A stretch of DNA of 64,000 nt from Escherichia phage Ecwhy_1. Below are positions 5,679 to 63,963 of the stretch, in pieces (the first letter of the stretch is position 1; each line of letters opens with the position of its first letter). The position numbers and the translations under genes were made by a program. The notes below the pieces were generated by a model. The model searched no databases, had not been told where the DNA came from, and saw only the letters and a list, made by a program, of their open reading frames with translations. Where the stretch lies: sequence record MH791411.1. One strand, given 5' to 3'.

Positions 5679-6605
5679 TACAGCCATTGGTGCTTTGATT
5701 GTTGGCATTGGATCGTAATTAACTAATTTGAAAGAATCCATAGTGAAATCTTCAATATCAGTAATAGTAGGATCTAGCCATAATTCTGGTAATGTACGTG
5801 GTTCACGTTGGAGTTGCTCTTTTACTTGTTCAATATGGTTTTGATAGATATGGCAGTCGCCACCATTCCAAATAAATTCACCAACATCTAACCCTGTAAT
5901 TTGTGCAATCATATGAGTTAGTAGTGAGTAACTACTAATATTAAATGGCACACCAAGGAATAGATCAGCACTACGTTGATGAAGAATACAACTTAGTTTA
6001 CCCTGTACAACACAAAACTGCACAAAGCTATGACAGGGTGGCAAAGTCATAGCATCAAGCTCACCAACGTTCCATGCACTTAGAATGTGACGACGACCGT
6101 ATGGATCAGTATTGATACCTTCAATAACTTGTTTTAGCTGGTCAGTTACACGACGCATAATAACACCATGTGAACCAGTATAATCAATAACTTTATACCC
6201 TTTATCTTTTAGTTCTTGAATTTCTTCAGTACTGGAACTGAATTTATAATCTTCCCATTCACGCCATTGTTTACCATAAACTGGGCCAAGCTCACCATCA
6301 GAATACCCAAGGCTTACACCTTGATTAAGGTAGTTGTCTGTCCAAATTGTTTTCTTTTCTACATCACGTGTCCCGTGTAAAATTTCACACAGACGACGCT
6401 CATCGTGAGAACCTTCAATAAACCATAACAATTCTGAAGTCATTGCTTTCCAAGCCAAACGTTTAGTAGTTACTGCTGGGAAACCTTCTTTTAGGTCAAA
6501 ACGCATTTGTTGTCCGATTAGCTTGATAGTGCCAACACCAGTACGATCAACGCTTTCGACACCTTGATCCAGAATTCTTTGATATAGTTCTTGTAGTTGT
6601 TTCAT
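5676..6605 (-). CDS. thyA: thymidylate synthase (ThyA/Td)
   Basis: Canonical ThyA motifs: RTGVGT, GFPAVTTKRLAWK, GPVYGKQWR, ILSAWN, LPPCH catalytic Cys, LGVPFNISSY. Uninterrupted ORF, no intron. Confidence 0.9.
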   Translation of the reverse strand: MKQLQELYQRILDQGVESVDRTGVGTIKLIGQQMRFDLKEGFPAVTTKRLAWKAMTSELLWFIEGSHDERRLCEILHGTRDVEKKTIWTDNYLNQGVSLGYSDGELGPVYGKQWREWEDYKFSSSTEEIQELKDKGYKVIDYTGSHGVIMRRVTDQLKQVIEGINTDPYGRRHILSAWNVGELDAMTLPPCHSFVQFCVVQGKLSCILHQRSADLFLGVPFNISSYSLLTHMIAQITGLDVGEFIWNGGDCHIYQNHIEQVKEQLQREPRTLPELWLDPTITDIEDFTMDSFKLVNYDPMPTIKAPMAV

Positions 6606-7198
6606 TTTACGTCCTTGAAAAATGTAATAAAGTGTTCCATGTGTTTTTGTGTAGCATTACGTGAACCAATCCCAGTCCAATTACCGTGTGGTGCTGGTAT
6701 TGAGAATGTTTCAGTAAACTCTTTCAGTACTGTATCATAATAAAATACAGAGCGAGTGTTCATATCATAACAATATATTTCTGGATTGTCAACTGAATCC
6801 ATATACATCTGTACGGCCCATGCAGTTCCACCTGAAACTTGCGTAGGTGATGTAATATTTGCAATACAATATACTCTTTTTGTATTAAGTATCTGGTAAC
6901 TATTCCTTGCAAGTAAGTTATATACATACGAACCAGGCTTAGGAACTTTACGGCGTAAAGAGTAACATGCAATGTTTAATTGTTTTAATATTGAACTATC
7001 ACAAAGGATATTGGGTGGAATTTCTAATATAGTATTTTCATCTACGCTGCTTTGGTGACCCTTGAATGAAAAATTTATTACTTCAAATCCATTGTCTTTT
7101 GCATAGATAGAAAAAAGGCGGTCAGCACCTGCTGCCCCGCCACTGAAACATACATTAGATAAACCATTGATTGCTTCATCTAATTCTATTTTATTCAT
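6602..7198 (-). CDS. hypothetical protein with Rossmann-like glycine motif (SLOG/DprA-like?)
   Basis: 198 aa; motif FSGGAAGADRLFSIYA resembles the Gly-rich loop of SLOG/DprA-type folds; stop overlaps the thyA start (ATGA). Family assignment tentative. Confidence 0.5.
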   Translation of the reverse strand: MNKIELDEAINGLSNVCFSGGAAGADRLFSIYAKDNGFEVINFSFKGHQSSVDENTILEIPPNILCDSSILKQLNIACYSLRRKVPKPGSYVYNLLARNSYQILNTKRVYCIANITSPTQVSGGTAWAVQMYMDSVDNPEIYCYDMNTRSVFYYDTVLKEFTETFSIPAPHGNWTGIGSRNATQKHMEHFITFFKDVK

Positions 7199-7203
7199 TT
7201 ATA

Positions 7204-7857
7204 TTATTTTGCTTTACGTTCAGCAAATGCCTGTTTAACTTTCTCAATTGCTTTGGTTTGTGAAATTCCTTCTGGGATTTCAATATAGAAAGTTTTGCTA
7301 TCAGGTGCTACAGGTGTTGCTTGAACTTGTGGACGTAGAGATGGTTCTAAGTTGTAAGCACGTTCAAAGTGCTCTTTAGCCAACTGCTCATAACGTTGTG
7401 CATCTTTAAGTAGTTGCTCAACAATGGTAGCTTCTTCAACAGAAGTATCGACTTCTTGTGGCTTGAATGGGTTGTATTCTTTAACTTTACCATCTTCATG
7501 TTTTTTAGCATCATTATCATTGATTGCGTTGTTTAGAACATCAAGAGAAATCTTACTGTTTCCACCAACATGCATATCAATATCACAAGTACGTGCACGA
7601 CGCAAATGTTGTAGATTATGAAGAACATCTAGCATTTTGCGACCGTCTAGATGACCAATCTTATGCATAACTTCCCACAAATCTACATTCGATTGACCTT
7701 GATTCATTACTAAATCTGCAACAGATTGAGCATATGCTTCAGGAAGTGAGTCGCGATAAACAATGAGACAATGTTCTGGATCATCAGGGAGTGAACGCCA
7801 TACCACAAATACTCGTGAACCCGTATTACGTACTACACCAACGTGACGAATAGCCAT
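7204..7857 (-). CDS. hypothetical protein
   Basis: 217-aa ORF with ATG start, in a tight minus-strand array. Confidence 0.5.
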   Translation of the reverse strand: MAIRHVGVVRNTGSRVFVVWRSLPDDPEHCLIVYRDSLPEAYAQSVADLVMNQGQSNVDLWEVMHKIGHLDGRKMLDVLHNLQHLRRARTCDIDMHVGGNSKISLDVLNNAINDNDAKKHEDGKVKEYNPFKPQEVDTSVEEATIVEQLLKDAQRYEQLAKEHFERAYNLEPSLRPQVQATPVAPDSKTFYIEIPEGISQTKAIEKVKQAFAERKAK

Positions 7858-12104: not shown

Positions 12105-13097
12105 TTATTTGTCCCCTAGAAATTGTTGATATTTCTTCTGGAGACTTTCGAAAATGTCTTCGACTTCTTCATCGCTTTCATCTTCTAGTTCTTCGTTACC
12201 TTCCACTGACTCATCACTCTCATTAACATTGAGTGGGTTGTCACCTAGAGCAGTACCTGGAAACTTAGGTTCAAATTTGTGAACACGGTTCTCGTTACCG
12301 TCATTGTCATAGTACTCTGGTTCAGGACGATTGTCAACATCTTCATCAACGACACGTCTCCAGTAGAACTTGTTACCCTTGGTAATAACAACAAAGTGGT
12401 CACCTTCTACACCATTAGTTTTAGCTTGACCGTCACGAACAGCATCAGCTTCAGTGTTGTAAGGACCAAAATCAGTACTGTCACCTTGTTCTTCATCTTC
12501 AGAGATGGTTAGGTCTGGTAGGAAAGTGTTTTCTTCAACTTTAACTTCAGTATCTGGGTTACCTTCTACTGAATATTCATCTTCTGGTTCGTCTTGAAGA
12601 CCAGCTAGAGATAGCATACGACTGAAATCGAATTCTTCTTCGATGATTTCTTCTTCTTCTTCCTCTTCTTCAACTGATTCTAGTTGAGGTTGACCGGAAA
12701 GATCTAAAGAAAACTCTTCTTCATCTGCAACACCAGGCTCTTCGAACTCTGCATCCATACTTACTTCTTCAGAATCACCACCAAAATCACCAGCTTCAGC
12801 AGATAGTGAGTCAGCAGCTACTTCCAATGGGTCTTCAACTGGTGCATCAATCGCACCATCCATTGTACCACCAACTTCTTCTTCAGCACCCGCACCAATG
12901 GAATCCATGTCGAGTGGAGCGATTGGTGGTAGAGAAGGGGTCATAGACCCCATAGAAGGAACTGGAGCAGCAACAGGAGAAGCTTGACGCTCTGCTTGAC
13001 CAGCTAATGCAAGCATACGAGATAGTGTTTCTAGATCTTCAGATTCTAGACCTGCGATATCGATTTTAACTTGTGCTTCATTAATTTTTTTAGCCAT
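12105..13097 (-). CDS. highly acidic low-complexity protein (poly-Glu tract; repeated SRML[AS]LAG motif)
   Basis: 330 aa; run EEEEEEEEIIEEE; motif LSRMLALAGQ and FSRMLSLAGLQ occur twice; AAGGA RBS and ATG. Confidence 0.6.
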   Translation of the reverse strand: MAKKINEAQVKIDIAGLESEDLETLSRMLALAGQAERQASPVAAPVPSMGSMTPSLPPIAPLDMDSIGAGAEEEVGGTMDGAIDAPVEDPLEVAADSLSAEAGDFGGDSEEVSMDAEFEEPGVADEEEFSLDLSGQPQLESVEEEEEEEEIIEEEFDFSRMLSLAGLQDEPEDEYSVEGNPDTEVKVEENTFLPDLTISEDEEQGDSTDFGPYNTEADAVRDGQAKTNGVEGDHFVVITKGNKFYWRRVVDEDVDNRPEPEYYDNDGNENRVHKFEPKFPGTALGDNPLNVNESDESVEGNEELEDESDEEVEDIFESLQKKYQQFLGDK

Positions 13098-25349: not shown

Positions 25350-25829
25350 TTATTTTAGAATGTATAAGTGTTTTTCTGCATTAACCAGTCTGTGGTCAAT
25401 GATTTCTTTGATAACGTTCCAGTTACCACCGCCTAAATCGGCTCCAATTTTCGGGAAGTGTACATGGATCTCTTGTGGTTCATTTTTAATGAATTCATTC
25501 ATCGAGTTAAATGCAAGGTCAATCGCATCATAACTTACATACTTCTTACCATCATTACCATAATACTCTTGTGTAATGCAGTTTGCAATAATTAAGTTAT
25601 TATTTGGTGCTGCATAGACAACTTCACCCAATTTCAAACCATTCTGATTGGTATAACGTGTATGATACACATCATATGCCAATTGGTGACGCTTTCTTAA
25701 TTCTTTTGCAAAACCAGAACCCATCTTACCCTGAGCGTTACAACCATGAGCGATAATATGTAATGCAGTTTGATCAGTAGTAACAGTACTGAATAAATCA
25801 AACAGATTACCACAATGTTCATGTATCAT
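25350..25829 (-). CDS. macro-domain protein (ADP-ribose binding/processing)
   Basis: 159 aa; IIAHGCNAQGKMGSGFAKEL and HVHFPKIGADLGGGNW match the macro-domain Gly-rich ADP-ribose-binding loops; GGAGAA RBS. Confidence 0.7.
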   Translation of the reverse strand: MIHEHCGNLFDLFSTVTTDQTALHIIAHGCNAQGKMGSGFAKELRKRHQLAYDVYHTRYTNQNGLKLGEVVYAAPNNNLIIANCITQEYYGNDGKKYVSYDAIDLAFNSMNEFIKNEPQEIHVHFPKIGADLGGGNWNVIKEIIDHRLVNAEKHLYILK

Positions 25830-51339: not shown

Positions 51340-51810
51340 TTAAAAGTCTTTATTTTTATATAAAATTCGTTGGTTATTTGAACCACGAAATGGTAATGTT
51401 AAATTCTTTTCTTCTGAAACAAATTTACCATCAACTAATACATCTAAGTACTGAAGAATGTCTTTAGCATGATTATTCATAATCTCTTCTAAAGTATATC
51501 CACTCCAGCACCAAATAGTTTTATTGGGATAAGTCTCTTTTACAATCTTACATAGTTCTAAAATTGTTTCTATGTTCTTTTTCATTAGAGGATCTCCACC
51601 AAGGAGGGATAATCCACTAACGTAAGGCTTACTGAGTTCAGCTAAAATTATATCAATTGTATCAGTACTGAACTCTTGTCCACTTCTATAATCCCATGCT
51701 TCTTCATTGAAGCATCCGTCACACCCATGACTGCACCCACTAACAAAAAGGGAGCATCTTACTCCCTCCCCATTAATAAGGTCGTCTTTAATTATCGTCT
51801 GGTAATTCAT
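51340..51810 (-). CDS. nrdG: anaerobic ribonucleotide reductase activating protein (radical SAM)
   Basis: 156 aa; Cx3Cx2C radical-SAM motif in SGCSHGCDGC near the N-terminus; downstream of nrdD. Confidence 0.85.
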   Translation of the reverse strand: MNYQTIIKDDLINGEGVRCSLFVSGCSHGCDGCFNEEAWDYRSGQEFSTDTIDIILAELSKPYVSGLSLLGGDPLMKKNIETILELCKIVKETYPNKTIWCWSGYTLEEIMNNHAKDILQYLDVLVDGKFVSEEKNLTLPFRGSNNQRILYKNKDF

Positions 51811-52114
51811 CTAATATTGCACTCACTATCTCAACGAGAACATCACCATGACATGATTTCGGTTTACAGAAACAGCCAAGACGTTTCCCTGCTAACTCAA
51901 GTAAATCATCAATCTGAACTTCACCGTTAGAAATACGCTCAATAATGTATTCTCTGAACTTTTCGATTGATTCTTCCCTTGTAGCAACAATGAACTCGGC
52001 TTTGGTCTGTTTATCACTGATATGGGTAAATGGGTTGCCCCATTTAGACCCACGACCGATATACACATCATACGGTTCTTTATATTTGTTAACCACAATT
52101 GGCTTTAAATCCAT
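51788..52114 (-). CDS. small conserved protein (DUF4326-like?) between nrdD and nrdG
   Basis: 108 aa; GRGSKWGNPF and a C-terminal CFCKPKSCHGD cluster; my recollection is that this matches the DUF4326 family. Confidence 0.45.
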   Translation of the reverse strand: MDLKPIVVNKYKEPYDVYIGRGSKWGNPFTHISDKQTKAEFIVATREESIEKFREYIIERISNGEVQIDDLLELAGKRLGCFCKPKSCHGDVLVEIVSAILDELPDDN

Positions 52115-54787: not shown

Positions 54788-55006
54788 TTATTTTATAACT
54801 CTACAATAGAAATGAATAATATACGGAAATATAGGATTATCTACGTATGTTGCAAAATTAGCTATGGTAATTTTTTTATAGTACGAGTTATGTATGGATA
54901 TAATGGTTTGTGGGTCGATTGCTTCTCTATTTGATAGTTCAACAAAACGACCACACTTCATATAAGCCTTACCATAATAATCGTAAGTTATCTCATATTG
55001 TTCCAT
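54788..55006 (-). CDS. hypothetical small protein
   Basis: 72-aa ORF. Confidence 0.4.
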   Translation of the reverse strand: MEQYEITYDYYGKAYMKCGRFVELSNREAIDPQTIISIHNSYYKKITIANFATYVDNPIFPYIIHFYCRVIK

Positions 55007-55408
55007 TTATTCTGGATCTTTGTTTTTATCCACTGTATTGTTTTTGTTTAGATCAATACCGAGTGCCACTGCTGCTGCCAGGTTTTCAATACCATCACCA
55101 TTCAAACGAAAACCTTGCTTGAGTAGGTTTTGTGTGTAGTATTTGTTGTAGAAAAATGCCCATACAAACATGGCGATGAAACCTAATGTACCAAAACTAA
55201 TAACGTTCAGGATTACAAAGATGACAAACGCACCGATGAATGTTAGAAAATCAGAACGGAATAGTGCAGGGATTGGACCAAAAAAGAATGTAGTCCATGA
55301 AAAACCATAGAAACCGTCTTTCTTGATTCCAGTACTTTCATTTTTTAAAGAAATAGTTTTAGCCATTGTTGACTCCTTACATGTTATGATTTGGTATACA
55401 GTACACAA
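55007..55408 (-). CDS. membrane protein (two predicted TM helices)
   Basis: 133 aa; hydrophobic stretches TTFFFGPIPALF and FIGAFVIFVILNVISFGTLGFIAMFVWAFF. Confidence 0.45.
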   Translation of the reverse strand: MCTVYQIITCKESTMAKTISLKNESTGIKKDGFYGFSWTTFFFGPIPALFRSDFLTFIGAFVIFVILNVISFGTLGFIAMFVWAFFYNKYYTQNLLKQGFRLNGDGIENLAAAVALGIDLNKNNTVDKNKDPE

Positions 55409-55646
55409 ATACTAAATTGGAAAAGTGTTCAGTACTGGAATATTTTGCTAAATCTGTTATATGGAAGTAGACATCTTTGAAATTATCATTCTCAAATGTC
55501 GTTATTTGTAAACAGTGTGTGGGTCTGAAAATATAATAATAAAATATATCATCTTCAGCCACAACTGTATGGTTTTTGTAGCGTTCAATTTTTTTCATGT
55601 GTGAATAATTTCTTTTACCCCATATTCCATAATTGCCAACGTACAA
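55377..55646 (-). CDS. hypothetical small protein
   Basis: 89-aa ORF overlapping both neighbours; uncertain. Confidence 0.3.
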   Translation of the reverse strand: MYVGNYGIWGKRNYSHMKKIERYKNHTVVAEDDIFYYYIFRPTHCLQITTFENDNFKDVYFHITDLAKYSSTEHFSNLVFVYCIPNHNM

Positions 55647-55963
55647 ATCTCACAAGGCTTGGCAGGGACTGGAATACCATCTTTACTTACCCGTGCAATC
55701 AACAAAGTATGAACTTCAGCACGAGAAGCCAGCAAACATGAGATTTCAGCATGAAGAAATTCACCTTGTGGACGACCAGCACGGATTGCAAAACCTTTCT
55801 GTACTGGGTGAGTATGTGTGTAAGAATTAGTACGTGTTGCCAATACACGACCTTTCTTATCAAGTGCACGAGCAATCACACGATAACGTTTGTAGCTCCC
55901 CACTTGCTCGATTGGTGGCATCCGTCGCAATTCTTCAATTAGTTTCTCAAGTTTACGATTCAT
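55595..55963 (-). CDS. zinc-dependent cytidine/deoxycytidylate-type deaminase domain protein
   Basis: 122 aa; the deaminase zinc-ligand pair HAE (FLHAEISCLL) and PCxxC (AKPCEICTL) at typical spacing; shorter than classical dCMP deaminases. Confidence 0.5.
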   Translation of the reverse strand: MNRKLEKLIEELRRMPPIEQVGSYKRYRVIARALDKKGRVLATRTNSYTHTHPVQKGFAIRAGRPQGEFLHAEISCLLASRAEVHTLLIARVSKDGIPVPAKPCEICTLAIMEYGVKEIIHT

Positions 55964-56586
55964 AAGTCTAAGTCTATACCCTTTTCAAATGATTTCTCTA
56001 GAACCCAAAGTTTACATTCTTCACTCTCCAAATGCATCTTTGCCTCTTTCTGTTGTTCTATTGTACAAGACTTTATAAATTCACGCAAGGCTTCTATTGT
56101 ACTTTTTATATTTTTTATGTCTTCCAGAATTGTTTCTTTGGCTTCAGCATCAATTACAGATGAACTCCACCCGTGACGTTCTTCCCAAATTGTTTTTGTT
56201 GAATTGTAAATTGATGATGTAGAAATGACTGCATGGACCTTATTAAACGTATCGTCTGCTTCTTGTTGGGTGTAATCACCATAAGTGTTTAGCACATTTT
56301 TGTATAGTTCATCAATTGCCTCATCATAAGTATCACCACCGCAATCTAACTCATAATCATGTGCTTGTACCCATTCATCATCTTGCTCAACGTACATAGG
56401 TGAGATGAATTCTACCCAAAATTGTGTCTTTGTATTCAGAGCTTTAAATGATTCAATGCGGTTTGTGATTGGACACACATCATGTGGTTCGATATCAATC
56501 CTTGGGGGAACCATATCTCCGTTGATGAATTTAGGATGGCCCATAATCCACCAGTACTTTTCAGATGTAGTCATTGTAATCTCCAA
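55960..56586 (-). CDS. hypothetical acidic protein
   Basis: 208-aa ORF. Confidence 0.45.
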   Translation of the reverse strand: MEITMTTSEKYWWIMGHPKFINGDMVPPRIDIEPHDVCPITNRIESFKALNTKTQFWVEFISPMYVEQDDEWVQAHDYELDCGGDTYDEAIDELYKNVLNTYGDYTQQEADDTFNKVHAVISTSSIYNSTKTIWEERHGWSSSVIDAEAKETILEDIKNIKSTIEALREFIKSCTIEQQKEAKMHLESEECKLWVLEKSFEKGIDLDL

Positions 56587-56619
56587 ATAAAAAGTACTGC
56601 CACTATAACAGTACTGATA

Positions 56620-56979
56620 TTAAATGTAACGTTTCTTTTTATAATCATACCCTACTTCTTTGTAAAAGTCAAACAAAGAAGCATGGGTAAACGTAGGTAA
56701 CAGATCATATGGGTGCTGATAGTTCGCAATACCAACAACTGCCAGCATTGATTCAGCCGTTCTGGAATTTTCACTATCCCATTCATCTAAACGCCACAGT
56801 GAACAAAGAACTTCACGTTCGTGTTGCTTACCAAGAAAGAATTCAGCTTCACGGTCACGAAATGCACCTACGCTGATAGTACTTTTGTACCAGTCTTTCT
56901 CACCATAAGCTGGCATACGGATAATGTGTTTTTCTTGAGCTTCACCAAAGCGATGAAGAAATGCCACATAATCACTCAT
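56620..56979 (-). CDS. hypothetical protein
   Basis: 119-aa ORF; ATG overlaps the stop of the upstream micro-ORF. Confidence 0.45.
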   Translation of the reverse strand: MSDYVAFLHRFGEAQEKHIIRMPAYGEKDWYKSTISVGAFRDREAEFFLGKQHEREVLCSLWRLDEWDSENSRTAESMLAVVGIANYQHPYDLLPTFTHASLFDFYKEVGYDYKKKRYI

Positions 56980-57146
56980 AACTTATAACCCATTACTGGT
57001 TTTGAATAATCAGGTTCATAAAACTTTTCAGTACTGAACCCTCTGAAATTACCACGACCTGGCTTCGGACAAGCCATCCCTTCTACACCGTGCTTACCCT
57101 GAACCTTTCCGCAGTTTTTGCATTTGTATCCAATAACTTCTTTCAT
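56976..57146 (-). CDS. 56-aa zinc-ribbon-like micro-protein
   Basis: Not in the ORF track. ATG at 57146 overlaps the upstream stop (ATGA), and its TGA overlaps the downstream ATG; translation MKEVIGYKCKNCGKVQGKHGVEGMACPKPGRG... contains CxxC plus a further Cys. Confidence 0.45.
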   Translation of the reverse strand: MKEVIGYKCKNCGKVQGKHGVEGMACPKPGRGNFRGFSTEKFYEPDYSKPVMGYKL

Positions 57147-57391
57147 TGTGCATCCTTTGGAATAGTGTTAAGGCGTGTACGGTTTACAATCTTCCTGCAC
57201 ATGAGATTAAGATCTTGCCCATGACGCATCTCATGGCAAGCATACAATGTACCATCATAGTTAAGTTTAGTCAAATTCTGGCGAATGAACTCTGCATCAG
57301 CCTCCTGAACTTTAGGTGCACAGCCACAGAGAGTAATGGACACAAATATTGTTAATGTAATGAATATATTTTTCATGATATTTTTTCTCAT
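57143..57391 (-). CDS. putative small lipoprotein
   Basis: 82 aa; N-terminal hydrophobic signal ending ITLCGC (lipobox-like). Confidence 0.4.
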   Translation of the reverse strand: MRKNIMKNIFITLTIFVSITLCGCAPKVQEADAEFIRQNLTKLNYDGTLYACHEMRHGQDLNLMCRKIVNRTRLNTIPKDAQ

Positions 57392-58359
57392 TTTGGGCTA
57401 TAACCACTTTTAATTTTAGAAATTACTTTCTTCTCGAAGAACTTACGTGCTTCTTCAATAGTTTTGAATTCTTCACCATCTGTAGTACTGGTTTTACCAA
57501 TAGCACCATACTCAATAATTACTTCACACACTGGAGCATTCAATTCAATATTATAGAATTTGTTCGAAGAACCGTGAACATATTCCAAATGTACATTATC
57601 AGGAATGTTCTGCACATAATCATAGTTCTTGAAGATAATATCAATCATATTTTCTTCACCGCGATCAGGAAATAGTTCAGTATTATTCAGTACTAAACGC
57701 TGTGCAGCACGGAACATATCAAAATATTGTTCACCTTTTTTCAGTTCTTTTGTATCAGAACAGAAATGACCATAGTATTCTACATAATCATTCCAAGGAT
57801 AAATTCCTTCATCAGCAGTTTCAAAAGCGTAAGTTTCATCTTGTGGAACTTTAAAACCACGAGTTTTTGGATGAGAAATTAAGCACAGTGAAATATTATG
57901 ACCGATATCTGAATCATCAGTAATACTACCACCAACCATATGAACAACATTTTTAATACGTTCAAAATCTACATCTTCAATTTCATGATACATTAAATGT
58001 TCTTCAATATTACTTACTAGTAATGAATTACCATTTCCTGCATCGAATTCAAAAATGAAAAGTTCTACACAATCTTCTTCTTTCATTTCAATAGTATCAC
58101 TGAGTTTAATATACTCATTTTTTACTTGTTCAATATTTTCATGAGAACCAAAACTATAACGAGAACTGATATAACTACTACCATCCAACCATCCCATATC
58201 CCAAGGTTCTTCTGACATGTATTCGGTGCTATAGAAATCAGTCAAATCATCTCTCTGAGTACAAACCGTAAGAGAACGAACATTATTAAGACCTTGAACT
58301 TCAAGATTCAGTACTGTAGTGTTGCCGATTTTTTGTTCAGAAATAATTTTAGTTTTCAT
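57388..58359 (-). CDS. hypothetical protein with C-terminal WGR-like domain
   Basis: 323 aa; C-terminal ~80 aa (SSNKFYNIELNAPVCEVIIEYGAIGKTSTTDGEEFKTIEEARKFFEKKVISKIKSGY) follows the WGR pattern, with YGAIG in place of WGRIG. Confidence 0.45.
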   Translation of the reverse strand: MKTKIISEQKIGNTTVLNLEVQGLNNVRSLTVCTQRDDLTDFYSTEYMSEEPWDMGWLDGSSYISSRYSFGSHENIEQVKNEYIKLSDTIEMKEEDCVELFIFEFDAGNGNSLLVSNIEEHLMYHEIEDVDFERIKNVVHMVGGSITDDSDIGHNISLCLISHPKTRGFKVPQDETYAFETADEGIYPWNDYVEYYGHFCSDTKELKKGEQYFDMFRAAQRLVLNNTELFPDRGEENMIDIIFKNYDYVQNIPDNVHLEYVHGSSNKFYNIELNAPVCEVIIEYGAIGKTSTTDGEEFKTIEEARKFFEKKVISKIKSGYSPK

Positions 58360-58368
58360 TTAAAATAC

Positions 58369-58473
58369 CTATTGAAATGATTTACGCCATTTGACTAGTT
58401 TAACATTCATGTAAGTAAGGAACTCACGTTCCATCTCTTCTGGACTCATATTATCGCATTGCAAAGCGAACAT
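58369..58473 (-). pseudogene. truncated duplicate of the 3' end of gene 58491..59138
   Basis: Nucleotides 58381-58480 are recognisably similar to 58505-58600; the 34-codon ORF (MFALQCDNMSPEEMEREFLTYMNVKLVKWRKSFQ) parallels the C-terminus of the upstream gene (...NSDEVEREFITRVQIALHKSKK). Confidence 0.4.
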
Positions 58474-58490
58474 GTCAAGTGCACATCATC

Positions 58491-59138
58491 CTACTTTTTT
58501 GATTTATGTAATGCAATTTGTACTCGCGTAATGAACTCACGCTCTACTTCATCTGAATTAACACCATCATATTGTGTTTTGAATAGTTCCATAGCTTTGA
58601 TAGCCATCTGAACTGAAAGATCAGCAATACTTTCAGTACTGGTACTTTCAAATACATTTTTGAGGCTTAGTTCACCATCATCAATACATTCTTTTGGTTT
58701 GTTGATTTCTGGTACTTGGATGTATCGCAATGCTTTGTATTCTGCTTTGGTCAGATTCCCAGTCCATCTTGGTTCATTGAACAAGTCATGCATTGTAATG
58801 CCAGCTTCACCCATTAGGTGTACTAACTCTTCATTTCGGCGAATATGCTTTTCTTCATCTTTGAAATTTTTGTAAGTGTAAGCACAACGCATGATAGCCA
58901 AACGTACTTCACCACTTTTAGTAATTGTATACGTATGAATTGCATTATCGTAGTCACTTTCCCATTGTTGACCCGCATATTCGTACCAAAGGTCATTTGT
59001 CTCCCAACGGAGCATTTTACCTTCTAGTAGCTCGTCAATCATTTTAGCCATGTTACCATGATATTCACAACTGGTAATATTAAATCCACCATTGTACTTT
59101 GCAAGGTACAGAATCTTTTCTTGTGATACATTTTTCAT
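58491..59138 (-). CDS. hypothetical protein
   Basis: 215-aa ORF with ATG start. Confidence 0.5.
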   Translation of the reverse strand: MKNVSQEKILYLAKYNGGFNITSCEYHGNMAKMIDELLEGKMLRWETNDLWYEYAGQQWESDYDNAIHTYTITKSGEVRLAIMRCAYTYKNFKDEEKHIRRNEELVHLMGEAGITMHDLFNEPRWTGNLTKAEYKALRYIQVPEINKPKECIDDGELSLKNVFESTSTESIADLSVQMAIKAMELFKTQYDGVNSDEVEREFITRVQIALHKSKK

Positions 59139-59476
59139 TACATGTAATCCTTGATGTATTTTAGCAGTTTAGATTTCTCTTCGGTACTTAATGATTTCTT
59201 GTTCATCAAGTGTTTCATTTCTTGACGTTCAATTTCTTCACATCTTTTAGATTCAGCTTCAATTCGTGTATGGTATTCTTCGTCAGTTTCTTCTCTGGTC
59301 CAAATTACATTGTATCCATCGAAACCACCGTAACCACCGTCTGGTGAAAGACTAATGTATCCCTTGTACTCTGAACGGTACTTATTAAGAGTGTCAATAA
59401 AGGTATCAATGCCACACTGTTCAATTTCAATATAACCAATCACGACAGCAACTTCAATTTTGTTCATAAAGTTCAC
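59138..59476 (-). CDS. hypothetical protein
   Basis: 112-aa ORF. Confidence 0.45.
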   Translation of the reverse strand: MNFMNKIEVAVVIGYIEIEQCGIDTFIDTLNKYRSEYKGYISLSPDGGYGGFDGYNVIWTREETDEEYHTRIEAESKRCEEIERQEMKHLMNKKSLSTEEKSKLLKYIKDYM

Positions 59477-59494
59477 CTATAAAAATAGGGAGCA

Positions 59495-60052
59495 TTAGCT
59501 CCCTTTGTATTGATGTTTACGTTTAGTACTGTATTTCCAGCCAGTACTGTGTCTTGTTCTGATATCATCCCAATACGATGGTAGTGAACGCATCTTACGT
59601 CTTCCACGTATATCCGGTTCCCCCTCATCCTTCAGTACTGCACAAGCCATACGACGCTCTTGTTGGGTCTTAGGACGTTTGTATCTGGAGTGGTTATGTT
59701 TGTACATATACGAACGCTTGTGTCGCCATTCAGTGTCACGAGCATTTCGTTTATGATCCCAGTACTCATTATAGAGTATCATGTATTCACCCATAAGTAA
59801 ATCAGGAGATACAAGTAATCCTTTTTCAGTACAAAGATAATAACCTACGAACTTTTCTGGATACATTTCGTAATAGAAACGGTTCTTCCAAAATGTTTCA
59901 CGATTCTTTTTGTTGAATTCAGCTAAATCGAATTTCATCTTACTGTGGAAACGGTCTATACCGTCATGTTCCGCAATGTACTCTAACAGATTATCAATAA
60001 TCTCAACTTTACCTGAATCATGGTACAACGTAAATGTTTGGTCAAAAAACAT
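59495..60052 (-). CDS. hypothetical protein with basic C-terminal tail
   Basis: 185-aa ORF; Arg/Lys/His-rich C-terminal third. Confidence 0.45.
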   Translation of the reverse strand: MFFDQTFTLYHDSGKVEIIDNLLEYIAEHDGIDRFHSKMKFDLAEFNKKNRETFWKNRFYYEMYPEKFVGYYLCTEKGLLVSPDLLMGEYMILYNEYWDHKRNARDTEWRHKRSYMYKHNHSRYKRPKTQQERRMACAVLKDEGEPDIRGRRKMRSLPSYWDDIRTRHSTGWKYSTKRKHQYKGS

Positions 60053-60140
60053 ATATTTCTCCTTTAAGTTAAACTAACCTAATGGAATGTCATTCTTCCT
60101 TTACTACATGTTCTCATGGTTTAATCCTTTTGTCAATATC

Positions 60141-60173
60141 TAGAAAGAAAAAATCCCTGCCAAAAGACAGGGA
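60141..60173 (-). terminator. rho-independent terminator
   Basis: Hairpin atccctg-ccaaaaga-cagggat (60152-60173); on the minus strand followed by ttttttctttct. Confidence 0.6.
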
Positions 60174-60268
60174 TGAAAAACTGAAATAACACATGGAGTT
60201 CTTTTTAAATTAATAAAAAGTATTATTATTCTTATGAAAGTATTTATCATGAACTCCAGTTTATTGCT

Positions 60269-60466
60269 TCAAATGCCCCAATAACCTTTTTGTGCTACTA
60301 TCTCACGGTATTGAGCACGAGTTAGAACACCTTGTTTACGTAGAGCTTGAAGACCTGATAGGGTTTCTGCTTTACGTAGTTCGTAATTGCGTTGTTCTTT
60401 AGATTGAATAACTTTAACTTTCTTAACTTTTGCTACTGGTTCTTTTTTCTTAGGTTGCTTTGCCAT
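60269..60466 (-). CDS. small basic protein (possible nucleic-acid-binding)
   Basis: 65 aa; Lys-rich N-terminus; AAGGAG RBS. Confidence 0.5.
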   Translation of the reverse strand: MAKQPKKKEPVAKVKKVKVIQSKEQRNYELRKAETLSGLQALRKQGVLTRAQYREIVAQKGYWGI

Positions 60467-60532
60467 GAGTATTTCTCCTTTGTTGTTAACAATATTATTA
60501 TATCATGTATGGGACGAATGTCCCATACATTA

Positions 60533-61972
60533 TTACATATTTTCTTCAGCAAATTCTGCCAGTGGTGAACGAACGACACCTTCTAGTTCGATTACACGAC
60601 AACCGTCCCAGTTCTTGAACTTCTCGGTAACATAAGTTAGACCGCTGTTAACTGGACTAATGAATTTAGAGTCAATCTGGCTCAAGTTGCCCATAATAAC
60701 CACTTTACAGTTCATTCCTGCACGAGTCAGGATTGTTTTAGCCTGAGCAGGAGTAATGTTCTGGAATTCATCCACTACTAGGATAGTGTTTGTGAAAGAA
60801 CGCCCACGAACGAAGTTTAGTGCTTTGAACTGGATAACATTACGTTTCATGATTTCTTCGATACTGCCTTGTGGGTTAGCATCATCTTTGTGTAGGAATT
60901 CCAACGCATCAATGGCAGCTCCACAGAATGGAATCACCTTCTCTGCCTCAGAACCTGGCAAGAAACCAATGTCTTCGAATTGGGAATCTTGTGTTTTGGA
61001 GAAGATGATACGGTCGTATTTTTTCTTCTCTAGTACTAGCTCCAGTGCAGTAGCAATGGTGATCAATGTTTTACCAGTACCTGCGGAACCCAACAGTACT
61101 GTTAGATGAACATCAGGATCTAGGATACTGTTGATTGCTAGTGCTTGTTGAATATTCTTAGCCTTAATATCCCACACTTTAGCACGTAGAGCAACAGATT
61201 GTCCAATATCTTGGAATACAAGAATATCTTCTGGTGTTAAAGTACCATCATCTTCTTCAATTGCAGATTGGCCTTCGTACACAAATAGAACATCAGCATT
61301 ATCATATAGGTAATCACCGATGCAAATATTTTGTGGCATGATATGTTCAATCAAGCTTTTTGGAATGTAGTGATACAAACGGCGACCAACTTGTTCAGAT
61401 TGGATAGACACATCAGTTAGATTGCTATACACATCCCAAAAATCTAGGTCGAGGTGATGTTGACCAATGTGAATCAAATCACTATCACCAATCACGATAT
61501 CATGACGATAATCTTGAACTTCCACCCCGTAGCTTAGAGCCTTGATACGCATATTGATATCACGGGTAACCAGTACTGAATCAGTTGCTAATGCTACTAA
61601 AATGATTTTATCATCTGGTACTGTGCTTTTTAGAAGAGTTTGAACTTTCTCTTCGTTACCAGAAGTACGAATTAGTGCTTCAGCTTCTTCGCTTGTAATA
61701 ACAAACAATTTGCTTTCAGGACTCATATTAGTATGAACATCAGCAATATTAACACCAGTACTACTAATTTCTTCATGTGATGCATCAGAAAGGATAGCTT
61801 CAATGTTACGGATTGCAACACGAGCATCACGGGAAACATCCACATTACGACTTTTGATTGAATCCAATTCTTCAAGTACTGTGAACGGTAGAATGATAGC
61901 TGCTCCATCAAAAGCAATGGTAGCATTTGGATCAGATAGTAGTACGTTTGTGTCAATTGTATATTTTTTCAT
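60533..61972 (-). CDS. phoH: PhoH-like ATPase with N-terminal PIN-like domain
   Basis: 479 aa; N-terminal DTNVLL PIN-like start; C-terminal Walker A GSAGTGKT and Walker B VVDEFQN. Confidence 0.85.
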   Translation of the reverse strand: MKKYTIDTNVLLSDPNATIAFDGAAIILPFTVLEELDSIKSRNVDVSRDARVAIRNIEAILSDASHEEISSTGVNIADVHTNMSPESKLFVITSEEAEALIRTSGNEEKVQTLLKSTVPDDKIILVALATDSVLVTRDINMRIKALSYGVEVQDYRHDIVIGDSDLIHIGQHHLDLDFWDVYSNLTDVSIQSEQVGRRLYHYIPKSLIEHIMPQNICIGDYLYDNADVLFVYEGQSAIEEDDGTLTPEDILVFQDIGQSVALRAKVWDIKAKNIQQALAINSILDPDVHLTVLLGSAGTGKTLITIATALELVLEKKKYDRIIFSKTQDSQFEDIGFLPGSEAEKVIPFCGAAIDALEFLHKDDANPQGSIEEIMKRNVIQFKALNFVRGRSFTNTILVVDEFQNITPAQAKTILTRAGMNCKVVIMGNLSQIDSKFISPVNSGLTYVTEKFKNWDGCRVIELEGVVRSPLAEFAEENM

Positions 61973-62033
61973 AAAACATCCTTGAGTTATGAGTACATCC
62001 TTGTACTCGACTAATGGTTAGTGACTCGGAATA

Positions 62034-62336
62034 TTACATGCTCGGTTCGTATTCAACATAACATCTTGAACCACGAGCCTTTTCCTCCCAGCATTCCTGG
62101 TAAACTAGTTGACCAATTGATACTGGATCTCTTGATAACCCATTACGAACTTCACCAGTACTGGTTTTATAAGTAAATGAGCATTTATTTTCATTACATT
62201 GACCTAATCCTGTTACAGTCGCTGTATTGTAATGAATATTATAACGTTTAGTGTTCTCATGATATGAACTGAACCACAGAACACCTATACCTAATAGCGT
62301 TGTGCAAATAAGACTCTTGATATGTGTTGAAATCAT
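62034..62336 (-). CDS. hypothetical secreted/membrane-anchored small protein
   Basis: 100 aa; N-terminal hydrophobic segment LICTTLLGIGVLWF; several Cys. Confidence 0.45.
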   Translation of the reverse strand: MISTHIKSLICTTLLGIGVLWFSSYHENTKRYNIHYNTATVTGLGQCNENKCSFTYKTSTGEVRNGLSRDPVSIGQLVYQECWEEKARGSRCYVEYEPSM

Positions 62337-62653
62337 AGTGCATTAAATCCATTAGTTAAGTAAGTTTCAATATTAACTTTCCCTACTGGATTACTACTAT
62401 GTACATAGTATTTAAATGGTTCTTTAATATTATGCTCAAACATATAATCAATTAGAAATTTGGCAAAAGTGTATCCAGTTTTCTCATCTGTACTCAAGTC
62501 ACCCAAGTCATGGTCAAATGAGACAAATGCTGGAATTCCATTTTTGATTACGTATTCACATGCACTTTCGTAGTCACGACACAATACCATCTCTTGGTCA
62601 GGATAATATTTTTGATAATCACGAATATCATCCAAGAACATTGAGTACGACAT
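62333..62653 (-). CDS. hypothetical protein (receiver-like fold?)
   Basis: 106 aa; conserved-looking FLDDIR, FDHDLG and HSSNPVG motifs; family not confidently recognised. Confidence 0.45.
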   Translation of the reverse strand: MSYSMFLDDIRDYQKYYPDQEMVLCRDYESACEYVIKNGIPAFVSFDHDLGDLSTDEKTGYTFAKFLIDYMFEHNIKEPFKYYVHSSNPVGKVNIETYLTNGFNAL

Positions 62654-62662
62654 TTTAAACTC

Positions 62663-63214
62663 CTATAGATAGCTGATTAGTAAGTTTTCTTTTTGTACAA
62701 GATACTCTAATTCTTGTTTCGCAGTTCCGATGAAGTTCTGTGTCATAAGATTATTATATCCTGCTTCTCGATTTTGTCCCTTCGAATAACGAGAGATGTG
62801 ACATAAATTTACACCAGCCACCTCTGCACTAGCATGTTTGCCATATGCATAATTATCACGAAGTTTTTTAAGTTCAGCATAAGTCATTTCATAACTATAG
62901 CTATGTGAGTGACCCTCTGGAAACAATTCAAGTGATTTTAATGGAGACAGGCGACTTTTGTCAATGATATAGTTCATTTCTTCTTGTACTTCACGTTGTA
63001 ACGCATCTTCTAATGACTTATCAGTACTTTCAACTGTTCCACCACATGCACCCAACAATCCATCCCAACGCACTTGTAGGAGTACTAAGTTAACCACTGG
63101 AATATCATTTAGTTCATAACCAGAGTATGGGGTACATTCTTTTGCATAAAAGAAACAGAATACAAAATTTGCACGTTTCCCCAGTTGTCCCAGTGGTACT
63201 TCAGCTTTACTCAT
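62663..63214 (-). CDS. Nudix-like hydrolase (divergent Nudix box)
   Basis: 183 aa; GGTVESTDKSLEDALQREVQEEMNY approximates the Nudix box (REVQEE core) with altered spacing; ATG overlaps the Sir2-like stop (ATGA). Confidence 0.5.
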   Translation of the reverse strand: MSKAEVPLGQLGKRANFVFCFFYAKECTPYSGYELNDIPVVNLVLLQVRWDGLLGACGGTVESTDKSLEDALQREVQEEMNYIIDKSRLSPLKSLELFPEGHSHSYSYEMTYAELKKLRDNYAYGKHASAEVAGVNLCHISRYSKGQNREAGYNNLMTQNFIGTAKQELEYLVQKENLLISYL

Positions 63215-63963
63215 CGCATTCGTTCCTTAATTATAGTTTCAACCTGTGGAATTGCTTTCGTCGCAGGTTTGATGACCTTCTCATTAAAAAGAAAATCATT
63301 ATCATTTTTTCGGATGTTAACATTTACACTATAGCATGGAAGTGCACCAGCTAGTCTGGACCATACCAGTACTGTATCACTACTTCCAATAACTACAACT
63401 GTATCATTTTCTGTGAGACTTTTCAACACTTCATTTCGTTCTTCATAAATGGGGAGACGTACCCCATCAACGTAGCGATGATACTCACCAATCATCACTA
63501 CATTTGGTTTTGCAAAAACATCAGCTTTAGGGATATATGGTTCATAACCACAATTAATGACATTGTAATCATCAGTATTAATAGAAAAGTTCTCAATTAC
63601 TTCACATAAATTGCCGTGTAGTTTGAGTTCGGTTCCACCAATTCTAGTATATAGATCATCCATATTAGAAGTCATGTGTAAAAAACAATCACCATACAAA
63701 TCTTCTAATGATTTAATAAAGTAATGCATTTCATTAGGATGACATTCACCTAATTTTACACGCAATGTATTATAAAATGAATGAACTATATGATACTTAG
63801 AACTAAGTCGTGCAATGTTACAAACATCATTAATTTTGAAATTGTCCCACAACCCATCATCAAAGCGGAATGGTTCCATCCCGCTCTCAACTGAAAGACC
63901 TGCCCCTGAAATTATAAGTAATCTTTTGTTCCCAGCATTTTGTATAAATTTATCTGATATCAC
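63211..63963 (-). CDS. Sir2-family (sirtuin-like) NAD+-dependent protein
   Basis: 250 aa; ISGAGLSVESGMEPFR, TSNMDDLY, LHG and VVVIGSSDTV match sirtuin NAD-binding motifs; no CxxC zinc ribbon seen; GTG start at 63963 preceded by AAGGAG. Confidence 0.65.
   Translation of the reverse strand: MISDKFIQNAGNKRLLIISGAGLSVESGMEPFRFDDGLWDNFKINDVCNIARLSSKYHIVHSFYNTLRVKLGECHPNEMHYFIKSLEDLYGDCFLHMTSNMDDLYTRIGGTELKLHGNLCEVIENFSINTDDYNVINCGYEPYIPKADVFAKPNVVMIGEYHRYVDGVRLPIYEERNEVLKSLTENDTVVVIGSSDTVLVWSRLAGALPCYSVNVNIRKNDNDFLFNEKVIKPATKAIPQVETIIKERMR

Follow-up and report, generated by a model that had tools for sequence, protein, structure and literature searches.

The locus and the 323-aa protein

The window, which is the whole 64,000-nt stretch of DNA that was analysed, contains a minus-strand gene for a 323-aa protein composed of two domains. 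The gene and the features that belong to it are as follows.

57388–58359, minus strand: coding sequence of the 323-aa two-domain protein (g228 of phage fEgEco12, XBS49310.1)
57604–58359, minus strand: N-terminal family-specific acidic alpha+beta domain (aa 1–252), delimited on structure models; net charge −27
58009–58047, minus strand: conserved motif FDAGNG..LLVSN (aa 105–117), from alignments
57907–57933, minus strand: conserved motif GGSxxDDxD (aa 143–151)
57394–57594, minus strand: WGR domain (aa 256–322), from the Pfam profile PF05406 and the fold
58450–58478, minus strand: predicted sigma-70 promoter close to consensus, TTGACA-17-TGcGATAAT, extended −10 (11 of 12 positions match)
56620–57391, minus strand: g229 (82 aa, lipoprotein-like), g230 (56 aa, CxxC) and g231 (119 aa), with 4-bp overlaps
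56593–56615, minus strand: terminator-like hairpin and T-run behind g231
57326–58489: exchangeable cassette of 1,164 bp, holding the promoter, the leader/g227, the WGR gene and the signal-peptide end of g229

The protein is the same as QAY00573.1 of Escherichia phage Ecwhy_1, without any difference in sequence. The Escherichia phage fEgEco12 (PP777464.1, 374,733 bp), an Asteriusvirus-like jumbo myophage, is 100% identical to window positions 55000–62000 over the 7 kb compared. Near the low end of the window (about 6600–7200), coordinates mapped from PP777464.1 are shifted by 14 bp (ORF at 6602–7198, predicted at 6616–7212). Therefore, at least one small indel separates the window from PP777464.1, or the window stems from another, nearly identical phage, for example Ecwhy_1. 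In the fEgEco12 record g228 is labelled 'WGR domain-containing protein', and Iyer et al. 2021 cited QAY00573.1, predicting it to be a transcription factor that binds DNA through WGR. The WGR assignment is thus already known, both in GenBank and in the literature. Our literature search found the protein mentioned nowhere except in Iyer et al. 2021, and the genome papers of fEgEco12 and phAPEC6 do not discuss the gene.

Homologue search and alignment revealed 27 full-length homologues. In the phages that carry it, the gene evolves under purifying selection (pN/pS 0.086, computed from 20 differences). Several identical or near-identical copies of the protein are filed under WP_ accessions of Escherichia coli. 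These copies, which belong to the cluster of the window protein, sit on contigs of about 342–350 kb, and these contigs are whole jumbo-phage genomes within bacterial assemblies. Such phage-sized contigs in E. coli assemblies accord with reports of 'persistent virulent phage'.

The C-terminal WGR domain

WGR domains are best known from poly(ADP-ribose) polymerases (PARPs). A preliminary description of this DNA, made by eye, had seen a WGR-like domain at the C-terminus of the protein, and both profile and fold confirmed it. The Pfam profile PF05406 matched with 41.6 bits against a gathering score of 22 (E=1.3e-10), and it also matched all 27 homologues and three distant relatives. The model has the curved antiparallel sheet and C-terminal helix of the fold and can be superposed on solved WGR domains. 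The eponymous Trp-Gly-Arg is not kept, because Y284-G-A-I-G288 replaces W-G-R-V-G. Across the family Gly285 is invariant, the aromatic residue is kept (it is Trp in one member, P0011) and Arg is replaced by Ala, Gly or Pro. The solved WGR protein 2ra8 (Bacteroides fragilis Q64V53) shares this variant motif, so the Y-G-A form is a trait of a subfamily and does not exclude the protein from the WGR domain family. Conservation is 49–83% in the WGR domain versus 31–55% in the N-terminal domain. The pTM of the full-length model is 0.90, which argues for fixed packing between the two domains.

The binding mode of PARP-2 has been analysed in detail (PMC6294510). W151 stacks on the 5'-terminal ribose of DNA, the 5'-phosphate side is bound by K130, Y132, K179, K183 and Y201, and the 3' side is bound by R153 together with N127. 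Mutation of most of these WGR contact residues abolishes stable DNA binding (PMC6294510). We placed the contacts on the phage protein by the profile alignment, with the following result.

PARP-2 K130: phage K267, invariant
PARP-2 Y132: phage Y269, invariant
PARP-2 W151: phage Y284, aromatic throughout, Trp in one member
PARP-2 K179: phage K311
PARP-2 K183: phage K315
PARP-2 R153 (PARP-1 R591): phage A286, which is Ala, Gly or Pro across the family; contact lost
PARP-2 N127: phage S264, not conserved

According to this alignment, the phage WGR domain retains the 5'-side contact set without the 3'-side pair. The C-terminal G319-Y320, invariant in the family, lies outside the tool alignment and may correspond to G-K-Y201 of PARP-2. 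The phage WGR segment is about neutral, versus about +6 for the equivalent segment of PARP-2 (counted from the printed sequence). The retained residues are compatible with nucleic-acid binding. They are no proof of end-binding, since the same Lys, Tyr and aromatic residues form the generic core of the WGR family.

The architecture of the protein differs from those of known WGR systems. DNA-dependent PARPs (PARP-1, PARP-2, PARP-3 and bacterial PARPs) carry an ADP-ribosyltransferase (ART) catalytic domain with an H-Y-E triad, whereas the phage protein has none. In PARPs the WGR domain precedes its partner and is followed by the helical regulatory domain (PARP_reg/HD), whereas the phage WGR domain comes after its partner and the protein ends three residues behind it. 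Furthermore, Trp has become Tyr, Arg has become Ala, Gly or Pro, N127 is lost, and the segment is near neutral instead of basic. The bacterial non-PARP type represented by 2ra8 is closest in both sequence and structure. In 2ra8, MolR-like and retron type XIII proteins the WGR domain is N-terminal and fused to repeats or to DUF4132, and these partners are absent from the phage protein. MolR-like proteins consist of an N-terminal WGR domain followed by DUF4132, whereas the phage WGR domain is C-terminal and there is no DUF4132 match. WGR domains in non-PARP contexts have been described, for example in accessory proteins of type XIII retrons (PMC7736814). The PADLOC profile WGR_XIII for the WGR-HEAT/ARM accessory of this retron type matched the phage WGR domain with E=0.044 only; these systems have repeats and a reverse transcriptase with ncRNA, whereas the phage protein has no repeats and no reverse transcriptase gene lies among its neighbours. 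In the literature that we found, no function has been shown experimentally for 2ra8, MolR-like or retron type XIII WGR proteins. The 'specific transcription factor' of Iyer et al. 2021 is the same protein as ours; the paper assigns the WGR domain only and predicts the role, with no account of the N-terminal domain, of the promoter or of how the cassette behaves.

The N-terminal domain

The preliminary description had left the N-terminal part unassigned and suggested looking there for a PARP-like or other catalytic fold. Neither profile nor fold searches detected an ART/PARP catalytic or regulatory domain, and the protein is not an ADP-ribosyltransferase. In the model, a three-strand beta-meander and a helical bundle accompany a beta-alpha-beta-beta-alpha-beta core. 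The closest known folds are ferredoxin-like, ACT/RAM-like and eIF4E-like alpha+beta sandwiches; profile and fold searches gave no family or fold assignment. In searches of aa 1–252 against Pfam, NCBIfam, PHROGs and PADLOC there was no match besides a ThsB/TIR-like one (E=0.014–0.028). This lead was rejected as chance, as it came from one of 15 family members and the TIR profile did not recur. A SidE_mART match (E=0.056) was likewise seen in one member of the 15 and was rejected for the same reason.

A profile of the N-terminal domain alone matched eight proteins among 1.84 billion cluster representatives, namely four members of the family, three distant relatives (342–354 aa, with a C-terminal WGR domain) and P0030. 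The last one, a protein of 3455 aa with five repeats at profile positions 179–214, is probably a spurious match. XaC1_197 of a Xanthomonas jumbo phage (418 aa) has a C-terminal WGR domain that is 40% identical and shares YxxFG, VS[ND] and GGxxxDDxD with the N-terminal domain, with a weak profile alignment (E=0.0037). Judging from these sequence matches, full-length proteins appear to carry the N-terminal domain only as a fusion to WGR.

In the alignment G60, G71, N117, G144, D148, D149 and P164 are invariant in all relatives, and they are recognisable in XaC1 too. N117 belongs to the motif FDAGNG..LLVSN and is invariant also in the distant relatives. G144, D148 and D149 belong to the motif GGSxxDDxD, which is likewise recognisable in XaC1. 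From the topology of the modelled fold, the D54–Y63 loop, N117 and D148/D149 would lie together at one end of the sheet, where they might make up a common pocket.

The domain is acidic in all 16 members examined (net −20 to −33, pI 4.05–4.7), and the whole 323-aa protein has a net charge of −28. In charge per residue the protein is 9th of the 77 ORFs of the window, about 1 SD beyond the window proteome. The most acidic ORF by far is another one of 330 aa (12105–13097, minus strand; net −74, −0.22 per residue), whose neighbours are annotated as virion structural proteins.

Promoter and expression

The predicted sigma-70 promoter lies about 90 nt upstream of the ATG of the WGR gene. Its pattern occurs once in the 64-kb window versus 0.05 times expected from shuffles. 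The promoter is identical in PBECO4 and phAPEC6, and it is absent from WPEC3. In distant relatives the WGR gene lies inside an operon without a promoter of its own. An annotated 34-aa gene, g227 (58369–58473, minus strand), starts inside the −35 hexamer of this promoter, the strongest sigma-70-like one of the region (TTGACATG...). Because of this overlap, g227 may be a 5' leader and not a gene. The genes g229–g231 are probably co-transcribed with the WGR gene, and the hairpin behind g231 is likely to be the 3' end of the transcription unit. A Pfam search of g229–g231 found no domains.

Mass spectrometry of phAPEC6 identified 62 virion proteins, and gp336c, the orthologue of the WGR protein, is not among them (PMC7247149 Table 1). 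This, together with the predicted promoter, suggests that the protein is expressed early and acts inside the cell. A nearby gene encodes a PIN-PhoH fusion (60533–61972, minus strand), and its phAPEC6 orthologue gp341c was detected in virions with 8 peptides and 30.9% coverage, which is unusual for a PhoH-like ATPase.

Distribution and exchange of the gene

The WGR gene was found in 16 E. coli phage records at 95–100% nucleotide identity. A homologue with 39% amino-acid identity is present in Erwinia phage Hallingskeid, and metagenomic jumbo-phage contigs carry homologues that are 37–74% identical and occupy the same syntenic slot, which is flanked by the PIN-PhoH gene on one side and by the dCMP-deaminase and NrdD genes on the other. 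Pattern scans of IMG/VR found no relatives, nor did a pattern scan of 185,579 bacterial and archaeal species (GTDB), each represented by a single genome.

The content of the slot varies among closely related phages. In WPEC3, 239 bp stand in for window positions 57326–58489 between flanks that are 99.8–100% identical, and this replacement (L006, 1827–2065) encodes CDS494, an ORF of 59 aa that has a hydrophobic leader. The same pattern of 72% coverage was observed in WPEC5, Turkey3, CMSTMSU, 121Q and Salmonella SD phages. One breakpoint of the cassette falls inside the downstream lipoprotein gene, and as a result the signal peptide of g229 differs between the two phage types. Between fEgEco12 and PBECO4, the block at 57300–58499 is 94.5–99.5% identical, whereas DNA on either side is 74–78% identical. 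PBECO4 (L007, 3889–4269) also has an extra 126-aa gene inserted after window position 57387, which overlaps the WGR stop codon by 4 bp, has no Pfam domain and does not occur in fEgEco12 or EC.P1. It might encode a partner of the WGR protein or might be merely another cassette.

A related jumbo-phage contig found in two samples (L013, 6001–6240) encodes a stand-alone 79-aa WGR protein in the same slot. It is 84% identical to aa 239–319 of the family member P0013, and no trace of the N-terminal domain is left at the locus; it is a clean natural deletion of that domain. As WGR alone is kept there, WGR is the core module. The presence or absence of the gene, its mosaic exchange and the deletion in L013 together indicate that the slot is hyperplastic, that the gene is dispensable and horizontally exchanged, and that WGR is the part which is retained.

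We also considered the neighbourhood as a source of a functional partner and rejected it, as the immediate neighbours differ among fEgEco12, PBECO4, Hallingskeid and the contigs L003, L004 and L005, and a Pfam domain was seen in none of them. The products of g229–g231 are not partners conserved across lineages.

NAD- and ADP-ribose-related genes of the window

The window contains several genes related to NAD and ADP-ribose.

62333–63963, minus strand: SIR2, Nudt16-like NUDIX and cREC_REC genes in a tight three-gene block
51788–52114, minus strand: DUF4326 (E=2.9e-24), between the NrdD and NrdG genes
25350–25829, minus strand: Macro-like protein of 159 aa, annotated 'phosphatase'

The profile matches of the block, which is conserved across the phage group, are strong for SIR2 (E=1.4e-19), the Nudt16-like NUDIX (E=1.4e-18) and the cREC domain (E=1.9e-23), and a second NUDIX domain occurs in the window (E=7.9e-12). 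The 159-aa protein matched the Pfam Macro model with 17.9 bits against a cutoff of 22 over model positions 2–116 of 118, and its sequence is probably that of a divergent macro domain. On the contig L003, a gene of the Acb1 family (anti-CBASS) lies directly upstream of the SIR2-NUDIX-cREC block. Genes of this kind are discussed by Iyer et al. 2021 under the heading of NAD-centred conflict systems of the phages concerned, and the authors predict that DUF4326 links NAD-utilising systems with DNA modification.

The preliminary description had taken the WGR domain as strengthening an ADP-ribose theme made up of Sir2, macro and Nudix genes. The genes of this theme are indeed in the window. A link between them and the WGR protein did not hold up. 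About 34 phage records contain the block, and the WGR gene is missing from at least 17 of these. When fEgEco12 is compared with PBECO4, identity is 79% in the block and 98% in the WGR gene. The PhoH gene, at least six other genes and terminator-like sites intervene between the block and the WGR gene, and the Macro-like gene is 32 kb away. The block and the WGR gene thus show neither co-occurrence nor a common history, and the protein has no catalytic domain. The thematic link is therefore unsupported, and the 323-aa protein should not be taken as a sign that the phage has an ADP-ribosylation system.

Possible functions of the protein

We tentatively favour the view that in group-2.2 (Asteriusvirus/Rak2-like) jumbo phages the protein is a dispensable, non-structural accessory that is made early, is absent from the virion and has two rigidly packed modules. 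The C-terminal WGR domain would be its conserved working part and would bind nucleic acid, with 5'-phosphorylated ends or nicks of DNA as the likeliest target. DNA ends or nicks are favoured because this is the only binding mode of WGR domains that has been established experimentally and because the 5'-side residues are retained. The acidic N-terminal domain may modulate or exploit this binding as a sensor or effector that binds a ligand, a metal or a protein; the ferredoxin-like core, the helical bundle and the polar cluster of invariant N117, D148 and D149 point in this direction. The probable role would be in host interaction or counter-defence, or in accessory regulation, early in infection. 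Presence or absence among near-identical phages and mosaic exchange are typical of accessory host-interaction genes, and this supports the accessory role. The net charge of the whole protein disfavours non-specific DNA binding and speaks against this view, as does the loss of the eponymous Arg and of N127, with which the 3'-side contacts are missing.

It is possible, though somewhat doubtful, that the protein is a phage-specific transcription factor, as Iyer et al. 2021 predicted. The WGR domain would then recognise DNA by sequence or structure, as has been proposed for MolR-like proteins, and the N-terminal domain would sense a signal or oligomerise, in the manner of a one-component regulator. 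However, the published assignment is a prediction by analogy, and we found no sequence-specific DNA binding by any WGR domain in the literature. DUF4132, the defining partner in MolR-like proteins, is absent here and the WGR domain is at the other end. Moreover, an unrelated 59-aa ORF cleanly replaces the gene in phages with 99.6% identical flanks, which rules out a part in the core transcription programme.

An inhibitor that binds proteins for anti-defence or host takeover is an unlikely explanation. Under this reading, the acidic N-terminal domain would act as a nucleic-acid mimic or as a blocker of a host nuclease or sensor, with WGR for scaffolding or targeting. The acidity of all 16 members, the accessory and horizontally exchanged cassette with its early-type predicted promoter, the absence from virions and the lack of cellular homologues in the scan of 185,579 species genomes are in line with it. 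However, the acidity is only about 1 SD beyond the window proteome, PADLOC and PHROGs searches gave no match, and the invariant residues form a compact Asn/Asp/Gly set instead of a distributed charge pattern. The natural variant L013 also loses the very domain that would act and keeps WGR. Classic DNA mimics such as Ocr are far more extreme in acidity. With the protein ranking only 9th in charge among the 77 ORFs, the idea of a DNA mimic was reduced to a minor rival.

Quite improbable, in our estimate, is that the N-terminal domain is a new enzymatic or small-molecule-sensing fold coupled allosterically to recognition of nicks or 5'-phosphates by WGR, by which the protein would shield replication intermediates of the phage or counter a defence system or nuclease. 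Finally, a part in an NAD/ADP-ribose system, be it as a cryptic PARP-like enzyme or as a reader or regulator that works together with the Sir2, macro and Nudix proteins of the phage, is very improbable: the renown of WGR from PARPs, the NAD-related genes of the window with the conflict systems described for these phages, and the single SidE_mART match speak for it, but no ART/PARP domain was found, the SidE_mART and ThsB/TIR matches are chance, and the block persists without the WGR gene and lies apart from it.

Significance of the gene and its natural variants

The sighting of a WGR domain adds nothing in itself, as a GenBank name and a comparative-genomics citation of this exact protein exist. 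What remains of value is practical: the protein is compact, folds well and joins a non-PARP WGR domain to an uncharacterised one. Its natural variants are nearly isogenic and comprise the full-length form (fEgEco12, PBECO4), WGR only (contig L013) and replacement (WPEC3, 121Q). They lend themselves to finding out what is bound by non-PARP WGR domains, a question for which we found no experimental answer in the literature. The variants also permit testing of host-range or anti-defence functions of a variable slot in jumbo coliphages that are therapeutic candidates. The N-terminal domain and these variants are thus a reasonable, if not urgent, target for experiments. If allosteric coupling between the N-terminal domain and WGR were true, the protein would be a phage break sensor that follows a PARP-like logic with an output other than ADP-ribosyl transfer.
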